A DNA stretch of 64,000 nucleotides from a virus, in the IMG/VR virus record IMGVR_UViG_3300045988_060821, positions 80,819 to 144,818 of that record. One strand, given 5' to 3'. This document shows, one piece after another, positions 22,766-23,423 of this stretch. Numbering within the stretch: the first letter of the stretch is position 1; the number at the start of each line of letters is the position of its first letter. The notes below the pieces were generated by a model. The model worked only from the letters and a program-made list of their open reading frames with translations, did no database searches and was not told the origin of the DNA. The translations under genes and the position numbers were made by a program.

Positions 22766-22795
22766 AAAGTTGTTAAATCAACTTTGCCAATTTTT
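22766..22795. repeat. Perfect 30-bp palindrome TTGGCAAAGTTG-TTAAAT-CAACTTTGCCAA followed by a T-run. Either a terminator or a recombinase binding site.
   Basis: Seen directly. It lies between the TGA of 22149-22742 and the serine recombinase start. Confidence 0.6.
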
Positions 22796-22817
22796 ATTAT
22801 ATAATGAGGTGATAAAG

Positions 22818-23423
22818 GTGTTATATGGATATGCAAGGGTTTCATCAAGAGATCAAAATCTAGACCGATAGATTATTGCATTAACCGATGCAGGCGTAGA
22901 TATAGATAATATCTTCGTCGATAAACAATCAGGTAAGGACTTCAATCGTCCAGCCTACTAGGATTTAGTACGTACGATTCAGCCAAATGATATGATTATT
23001 ATTAAAAGCATTGATAGATTAGGCCGTAATTACTCAGAGATCCTAGAACAATGGGGTTTAATTACCAAGACTAAGAAAGTAGATATTAAAGTATTAGATA
23101 TGCCATTATTAGACACGTCATATTGTAAAGACGTTATGGGTACATTTATCTCTGATCTTGTCTTATAGGTATTATCCTTCTAGGCTGAACAAGAGAGAAC
23201 CTATATTAAACAACGATAGGCTGAAGGAATTGCGGCCGCCAAGTCTAATGGCGTCTAGTTTGGTAGACCAAGGAAACCTCTTCCCTCGAATTTCGAGGAA
23301 CTATATCAGCGTTTCCGCAAGAATGAACCAATTACTAGGCTCGCGAAAGAATGTCCAGAAATCTCAGAATCTACATTACGGCTCCGCTTATAGGAGAGAT
23401 TTGATTTGGACAGAAAAAGATAA
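22818..23423 (+). CDS. Small serine recombinase (resolvase/invertase family, about 201 aa) with 6 recoded TAG.
   Basis: N-terminal [25 protein letters not shown] matches the resolvase/invertase catalytic region YxRVS(T/S)xxQ...D(I/L)Q. The TAG falls exactly on the family-invariant Gln. C-terminal ...[24 protein letters not shown] matches the E-helix and GRP region. Confidence 0.85.

Follow-up and report, generated by a model that had tools for sequence, protein, structure and literature searches.

What is the function of an inverted repeat with recombinase-like half-sites that lies directly upstream of a phage recombinase gene? The case considered here comes from 64,000 nucleotides of viral DNA (positions 80,819 to 144,818 of IMG/VR record IMGVR_UViG_3300045988_060821; hereafter the window, with positions counted from its first letter), where a small serine recombinase gene follows a fibre-like and a chaperone-like gene and is itself preceded by a 12-6-12 inverted repeat. 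Three readings had been offered in an original prediction made from the letters of the sequence: a Gin/Cin-like host-range switch, a res-type resolution system, or a terminator sharing a regulatory TTGGCA motif. Among these, the terminator sharing the TTGGCA motif is the best supported, given the fold of the repeat, the hairpins found at gene ends, the covariation and the copies of the surrounding element. With slightly better than even confidence, we propose that an intrinsic terminator of the fibre/chaperone unit is fused to a promoter/operator-type element heading the recombinase-holin unit. The features on which the argument turns are the following:

22761-22790, + strand: inverted repeat 12-6-12, with TTGGCAAAGTTG at 22761-22772, TTAAAT at 22773-22778 and CAACTTTGCCAA at 22779-22790
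22748-22811, + strand: control element copy A, with H1 TTACCA at 22749-22754 (-35-like), H2 (left arm), TTAAAT (-10-like), H3 (right arm) and a T-run; in its 3' part TATAAT at 22800-22805 and a putative ribosome-binding site, GAGG, at 22806-22809
23904-23968, + strand: control element copy B, with TTGGCAAAATTT at 23905-23916, TTGGCAAAAATG at 23917-23928, TAAAAT at 23929-23934 and TATACT at 23954-23959; 5' of gene 24001-24399
22818-23423, + strand: small serine recombinase, 201 amino acids, GTG start, seven TAG codons read as glutamine

The inverted repeat begins 19 nt past the TGA stop codon of the chaperone-like gene, with an A-run on its 5' side and a T-run, TTTTTATTAT, on its 3' side. Its arms are perfect 12-mers and its 6-bp spacer, TTAAAT, is not self-complementary. 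The repeat reported at 22766-22795 as a perfect 30-bp palindrome thus exists, but lies five bases away from that position and is interrupted by the spacer. The hairpin folds at -20.1 kcal/mol (z -4.2; 12 pairs and a 6-nt loop), and a consensus scan describes it as terminator-like on both strands. Altogether, 11 distinct perfect hairpins (arms of at least 12 bp, loops of 3-8 nt) occur in the window against 0.02 per shuffled window, the ten others at 2455, 10621, 15713, 25542, 26890, 41984, 44618, 49692, 51748 and 56665. The repeat is not a chance occurrence, but it is one of a class in the window and not unique. Most of the 11 sit at gene ends, several looking like bidirectional terminators; long perfect stems are therefore the usual terminators of this phage.

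Sequence change in the repeat may point the same way. Across 15 distinct relatives, 81% of the helix cells pair; five pairs show two-sided changes, two of them core pairs (AU/UA and UA/GC), while the one-sided changes in the core arms (CG>UG, AU>GU, UA>UG and GC>GU) are G-U wobbles on the + strand, a pattern expected of an RNA and not of a protein site. The observed covariation score was reached by 0 of 500 shuffles, and slid registers score far lower. In one relative, L137, the right arm pairs with the upstream box H1 instead, and a hairpin (-24.5 kcal/mol) is retained.

The hairpin is part of a larger element. Sixteen elements from eight clades align over 67 nt, nearly without gaps, through a succession of blocks: H1 (TTNNCA), H2 (TTGGCAAA), TTAAAT or TAAAAT, an optional H3 (TTTGCCAA, the right arm), a T-rich stretch, a TATAAT-like box and GA(A)AGG. 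An nhmmer profile of these elements retrieves only two full copies in the window, A (E 7e-13) and B (E 6e-13), which agree at 26 of the 36 positions surrounding TTGGCAAA; within the 64 kb, only these two sites contain the 19-nt core TTGGCAAANNTGTNAAATC. Where element A has the right arm TTTGCCAA, element B has a small palindrome (23930-23951, AAAATCGTC-CATA-GACGATTTT). Site B scores as a sigma-70-type promoter (TTGGCA-18-TAAAAT, 10/12) and site A presents TTACCA-18-TTAAAT in the same register, from which the promoter boxes of the element are predicted. The second copy would head the following operon, and this accounts for the related half-sites seen there; these had been correctly described as direct repeats, yet they occupy 23905-23916 and 23917-23928, not 23909-23932.

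We suggest, then, that the 12-6-12 repeat would act as the intrinsic-terminator hairpin ending the fibre and chaperone transcription unit, and that this hairpin would be fused to a fixed-length, 67-bp promoter/operator-type element heading the recombinase and the holin. The left arm (TTGGCAAA...) would fall in the promoter spacer, the loop TTAAAT would double as the -10-like box, and TTACCA, 18 nt upstream, as the -35-like box. Transcripts reading through from upstream would carry the whole hairpin and its U-run, and stop; those initiated within the element, being without the left arm, would continue into the recombinase gene. The terminator activity, the promoter boxes and late expression are predictions that we infer.

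Several observations weigh against this interpretation. The -35/-10 assignment rests on 18-19-nt spacers and weak hexamers; the two-sided covariation may represent only one or two events among related sequences, and related sequences can outscore shuffles even where no structure exists. Conservation extends to the sequence of the outer arms, and the fold in some clades reaches no more than -10 to -15 kcal/mol. Its AT-rich stem sets the hairpin apart from the other terminators of the window, and the hairpin of L137 is not followed by a T-run. Moreover, the outer TTGGCA...TGCCAA dyad keeps its 30-31-bp geometry where the inner arms pair poorly (site A of L137, site B of L139 and the post-holin element of L219); such a fixed outer geometry, unneeded for a simple terminator, looks like that of a dimer-binding site. 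Finally, the terminator-promoter explanation leaves the recombinase without a substrate.

Could the dyad be that substrate? Under this alternative, TTGGCAAA-N14-TTTGCCAA, 30 bp long, would be the dimer-binding site of a Sin-like recombinase, placed 5' of its own gene as in Tn3, gamma-delta and Sin, and would serve autoregulation, the resolution of multimers of circular phage DNA (as the crossover site), or both, with the hairpin as a by-product or a second function. We consider it possible, although doubtful; the terminator and protein-binding-dyad readings are not exclusive and can both hold.

The properties of the protein are in its favour. With TAG read as glutamine, the product of 22818-23423 matches PF00239 (E 5e-28, 98.5 bits against a cutoff of 23.3), as expected of the resolvase/invertase-type serine recombinase originally recognized there, as well as phrog_125, "DNA invertase" (E 1e-50); no NCBIfam model lies above its cutoff, and Pfam returns no helix-turn-helix family match in the protein. 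Among solved structures the closest is the resolvase Sin (2r0q; E 9e-33 over residues 1-179), followed by the gamma-delta/Tn3 resolvases (~1e-21) and Gin (2e-16). A structure model was available as the AlphaFold (AF2) prediction for P0004, a homologue 88% identical to the window recombinase (predicted local distance difference test score, pLDDT, 84.6): it comprises a catalytic domain, a long E helix (106-143) and C-terminal helices at 159-167, 172-178 and 184-200, the same plan as Sin with its catalytic domain, long E helix and C-terminal three-helix DNA-binding domain. In Foldseek the model aligns over its full length with Sin 2r0q (36% identity) and with the gamma-delta resolvase 1gdt (template modelling score, TM, 0.64-0.70). 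By sequence and by model, the recombinase thus appears nearer to Sin and the gamma-delta resolvases than to Gin. Its catalytic residues, YARVS (S9), D35, D66-R67 and R70, are invariant in 20 and 26 homologues, and the ratio of nonsynonymous to synonymous substitution rates (dN/dS) against relatives is 0.03-0.065; it is under strong purifying selection, and is predicted to be catalytically intact, a working enzyme and not a relic. The nearest match in a bacterial genome (78% identity) lies on a 148-kb contig binned as Eubacterium, and the remaining ones, at most 67% identical, are nearly all from Clostridia; upstream of recombinases about 60% identical, in bacteria and other phages, we found no common motif or dyad. 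Public assemblies (L346-L355) call the recombinase as 143 amino acids owing to in-frame TAG, and the database entries P0001 and P0005-P0007 exceed 201 amino acids (249-352).

The dyad itself also has the geometry of a serine-recombinase site: the outer 6-8 bp are conserved and the interior is variable over a length of 30 bp, and this is kept where pairing is poor. The half-site, TTGGC followed by an A-tract, resembles that of Hin (TTATC-AAAAA), and the protein carries a GRPRK arm and an invariant SxSTLRLR helix. Among the clades that carry the recombinase, none is without such a dyad at site A or site B, and a dyad directly 5' of the recombinase gene is likewise seen in Tn3 and gamma-delta, where res is the operator of tnpR; the res of Tn3 indeed doubles as operator. 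The direct half-site repeats, H1-H2 and 23905-23928, match in kind accessory site II of Sin, which is a direct repeat of half-sites (PMC2428073). Nor does the lack of a partner site refute the res reading, as the original prediction had supposed: a resolvase needs only one site per genome, or per replicon in the case of gamma-delta.

The architecture of the locus is less accommodating. The res of Sin, from Staphylococcus aureus plasmids (resH), spans ~86 bp and consists of an inverted-repeat crossover site I, a spacer for HU/IHF and the direct-repeat accessory site II (PMC2428073); here both kinds of repeat are present, but 1.1 kb separates the inverted from the direct sites, which belong to two copies of a promoter-like element. 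Neither a compact 86-bp Sin res nor a 114-bp Tn3 res with its three binding sites is found, only one extra half-site-like box lies beside the dyad (22749-22755), and the Tn3/gamma-delta setting of transposase and transposon ends is missing. Mutant studies of Sin connect F52 and R54 with the contacts that its regulatory tetramer makes with the catalytic one (PMC2428073); at the corresponding positions of our recombinase, phmmer aligns T and Q with 2r0q. This is, besides, a phage and not a plasmid, and no recombination product was observed in the data at hand. In L148 the start of the recombinase gene and the stop codon before it overlap, no site precedes the gene, and a dyad resembling site A stands instead at the head of the downstream operon; in the L026 clade, site A is without its right half-site. 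A deletion variant without the 5' two-thirds of the recombinase exists (L025), and the accessory block that houses the gene, with its retroelement and fibre, is wholly missing from a sister phage, which argues against a core role in replication.

That sister phage, L219 (the same contig as L345, L356 and L357), separates the element from the enzyme. There the whole block of retroelement, fibre, chaperone and recombinase is replaced, the recombinase is absent within 10 kb on either side, and the element, dyad included, is still present: before the holin (a weaker copy), after the holin (before an extra 99-amino-acid gene) and before the homologue of gene 24001. The control element is not tied to the recombinase. 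Comparison of L219 with the window further suggests that the recombinase open reading frame, together with a duplicated element tail, was inserted between the promoter-like element of the holin and the holin leader.

The same observations fit a further alternative, which we hold to be quite unlikely: an operator for a phage or host transcription factor timing the lysis-region operons, with TTGNCAA heptamers 12 and 23 bp apart on one helix face, and with the recombinase as a passenger gene inserted between promoter and holin. The heptamer TTG-S-CAA is a mini-palindrome, and at H1 it stays in place but is found in either orientation, depending on the clade. The element is present in L219 without the recombinase, and the L219 holin owns a copy, whereas the window holin keeps only the tail, as would result from insertion of the recombinase frame together with a duplicated tail. 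The 64 kb contain just two copies, and these lie in the lysis region. Against it, no candidate regulator emerged, no known operator consensus was matched, and the likeness to CodY and Spo0A sites is by eye only; a sigma-54 reading of TTGGCA-N-TTGGCA was rejected, its GG-to-GC spacing being, by eye, one base too long. Such an operator would, in any case, overlap largely with the terminator-promoter interpretation, without conflict between the two.

A composite of these functions is conceivable, though unlikely: a single element acting as terminator, as late promoter/operator of the holin operon and as res site, and so coupling recombination to the timing of lysis. If it were true, a catalytically active Sin-like recombinase translated only after the switch in TAG reading would link lysis-gene timing with the resolving or rearranging of replicated phage DNA, and the direct repeats A and B, flanking recombinase and holin, could even permit excision of the pair.

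The Gin/Cin/Hin-like host-range switch, with the palindrome as one of two inverted crossover sites and the fibre/chaperone segment flipped between them, brings in the genes upstream:

21107-22138, + strand: fibre-like (putative receptor-binding) gene, 343 amino acids, four in-frame TAG codons read as glutamine
22149-22742, + strand: DUF4376 protein (tail-fibre assembly or chaperone-like), 197 amino acids, without TAG, TGA stop at 22740-22742

The chaperone-like gene was rightly named, with a match to PF14301 (DUF4376; 30.4 bits against a cutoff of 25) and another to phrog_1348. The fibre-like frame stands if TAG is read as glutamine; its likeness to tail-fibre PHROG families is confined to a short N-terminal match, residues 11-48. 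The gene order of fibre, chaperone and recombinase recalls that of Mu (S-U-gin), since in Gin/gix of Mu, Cin/cix of P1 and Hin/hix a small serine recombinase likewise follows tail-fibre and chaperone genes. Their sites, like our repeat, have 12-bp half-sites with an outer specific block and then an A-tract; the central dinucleotide AA is asymmetric, as in hix; and the PHROG label of the protein is that of an invertase. Yet the spacer measures 6 bp and not 2 bp, and the match to Gin is far weaker than that to Sin. Clostridia, the predicted hosts, are not known to have Fis, and no Fis/enhancer system would be expected in Firmicutes.

The search for partners and products speaks against such a switch. 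In the 64-kb window, the only matches to the palindrome or its half-sites were the known sites and scattered two-mismatch ones in coding DNA, in agreement with the original remark that a second inverted copy was not to be seen there. Extended to IMG/VR, the search gave one copy of the full pattern per contig in 24 related contigs (up to 148 kb), none of them accompanied by an inverted second copy, and no further copy among 2.9 million viral contigs. Inverted repeats of at least 28 bp are missing from the window and from 17 recombinase-bearing relatives. Alignment across the site shows all 25 close relatives to be collinear with the window, and the 13 contigs encoding an identical chaperone all keep the order chaperone, recombinase, holin. 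Overall, neither a partner site, nor an inverted repeat, nor an inversion or deletion junction was found in the window, ~90 related contigs or the 2.9 million viral contigs, and alternative fibre C-termini are absent. Junctions of the A x B type were sought as well (the deletion and the circle), and neither occurs in JGI metagenome contigs, a weak negative given that minority variants are rarely assembled. The relaxed dyad, TTGGCAAA-N14-TTTGCCAA, has 85 loci in IMG/VR; the six non-canonical ones inspected, recognized as relatives by contig name, are all site B of the L139 clade, and matches outside the family look like chance, many being in coding-like sequence. There is no invertible DNA around the recombinase. 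Nothing shows that the recombinase flips tail fibres, and the single site per contig, the collinear relatives and a protein nearer to Sin make a Gin/Cin-like switch highly improbable.

The fibre does vary, by another route. The region 21137-~22735 is a replacement hot spot, with at least five unrelated cassettes in relatives ~95% identical elsewhere (L002, L005, L008, L016 and others), all of which keep the first ten codons, MSLKCILQGQ; one cassette bears dockerin-like DxDGDGKIT repeats. The cassette boundaries were considered as recombination sites and rejected: the left one is the ten-amino-acid peptide, kept through synonymous changes, and the right ends are scattered. Fibre cassettes thus vary by replacement between genomes, with a left edge set by a conserved peptide and not by a DNA site. 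In L025/L214 (IMGVR_UViG_3300045988_051454), a natural deletion corresponding to 21073-23162 of the window, at a TTA microhomology, has taken out both the fibre and the chaperone-like gene and two-thirds of the recombinase from its 5' end, and has left element B in place.

L219 is again instructive, as it does have, at the same genomic position, an inverted-repeat-flanked fibre segment of the kind that a switch would call for. In place of the block stands a 1.4-kb segment between perfect 106-bp inverted repeats (1113-1218 and 2645-2750). Its convergent fibre C-termini, with a bidirectional terminator in the middle, give it the layout of an invertible fibre switch; the repeat holds a dyad, CCCAGCTAGT-AAAATA-ACTAGTGGG, and occurs in only one IMG/VR contig. 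Against a link with our locus, the 10 kb to either side of the segment are free of serine recombinases, and no homologue of the window recombinase is nearby. A further point of comparison is the Rin shufflon of Bifidobacterium prophages, which are Gram-positive gut phages and reportedly place an invertase beside a phase-variable receptor-binding gene; that system is said to use multiple inverted sites and alternative gene segments, neither of which is present at our recombinase locus.

Among known systems, Rho-independent terminators overlapping the next promoter also bear comparison. The similarities are a stable hairpin with a T-run after a stop codon and RNA-compatible covariation; the differences are a stem that is unusually AT-rich, a conserved outer sequence, and a left arm that recurs at a second element without the matching right arm.

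The gene assignments depend on the genetic code of the phage, which the original prediction had used without stating it: the recombinase and fibre frames are genes only if TAG encodes glutamine, and the standard bacterial code breaks them with seven and four TAG codons, respectively. Four of the seven TAG sites of the recombinase (codons 18, 48, 117, 122, 134, 147 and 192) align with invariant or near-invariant glutamines of homologues, and TAG swaps with CAA or CAG among its relatives; the phage is therefore recoded, with TAG as glutamine throughout and TAA and TGA as its only stops, which yields long open reading frames across the window (22818-23423, 21107-22138, 27438-27917 on the - strand and 48763-49680 on the - strand are examples bearing TAG). 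In-frame TAG is frequent in structural, lysis-region and homing-endonuclease genes and almost absent from replication genes (30-56 kb). A scan of the 64-kb window gave no tRNA gene, so a suppressor tRNA would lie outside it. Such recoding has been reported mainly for late genes (PMC10607447), and by analogy the recombinase, with its seven TAG codons, is probably made late. That paper, on phAss-1 and TAG-recoded Clostridia-type phages, makes no mention of such a recombinase, and in the literature we found no paper tying diversity-generating retroelements or stop-codon recoding to one.

The wider neighbourhood includes, besides the genes already listed:

16850-20996, - strand: diversity-generating retroelement (DGR), with reverse transcriptase 16850-18115 (-), Avd-like gene 18501-18995 (-), template repeat 18366-18468, variable repeat 19094-19196 and target gene 19077-20996 (-)
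23473-23856, + strand: holin-like gene, 127 amino acids, without TAG; phrog_13712 E 4.5e-34, with a weak Holin_LLH match below cutoff
23865-23885, + strand: GC-rich terminator-like hairpin closing the recombinase-holin unit, -16.6 kcal/mol

The DGR had been placed beside the recombinase locus; it is complete, and both of its repeats were located: the variable repeat is 78% identical to the template repeat and lies at the 3' end of the target gene, and syntenic relatives of the region give RVT_1 and Big_3/DUF6273 matches. The order, from reverse transcriptase, Avd and target on the - strand to fibre, DUF4376 chaperone-like gene, recombinase and holin-like gene on the + strand, is kept in relatives down to 72-73% recombinase identity, and the holin-like gene and the recombinase probably share a transcript. 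A small M78/ImmA-IrrE-type peptidase protein (PF06114, E 1e-6; 26576-26908) closes the operon that element B heads; proteins of this type are frequent parts of repressor-cleavage switches. As assigned from translations, the rest of the window codes for tail and baseplate proteins together with a full set of replication functions (DNA polymerase III alpha, helicase, primase, type II topoisomerase, ligase, NrdD and ThyA), with no integrase seen among the window translations. Two putative GIY-YIG-type homing-endonuclease-like genes, also read from translations, lie at 48763-49680 (-) and 62914-63633 (-), the former with 13 TAG in 305 codons, the window maximum. Annotated phage collections contain no close DNA or protein relative, everything being below 60% identity, and Rfam gave no match to the window. 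The host is probably a member of the gut Clostridia.

Had the first report held, this uncultured, TAG-recoded gut phage would possess a second host-range diversifier alongside its DGR; the evidence does not bear this out. Two warnings follow from it: standard gene calls break or shorten the recombinase under TAG recoding, and a hairpin with recombinase-like half-sites beside a recombinase gene is not evidence of a switch. The recombinase and the element belong to known families. What remains is a compact terminator/promoter element marking the lysis region, and a strongly conserved, hitherto uncharacterized clade of Sin-like recombinases travelling with a block of DGR, fibre and chaperone genes.

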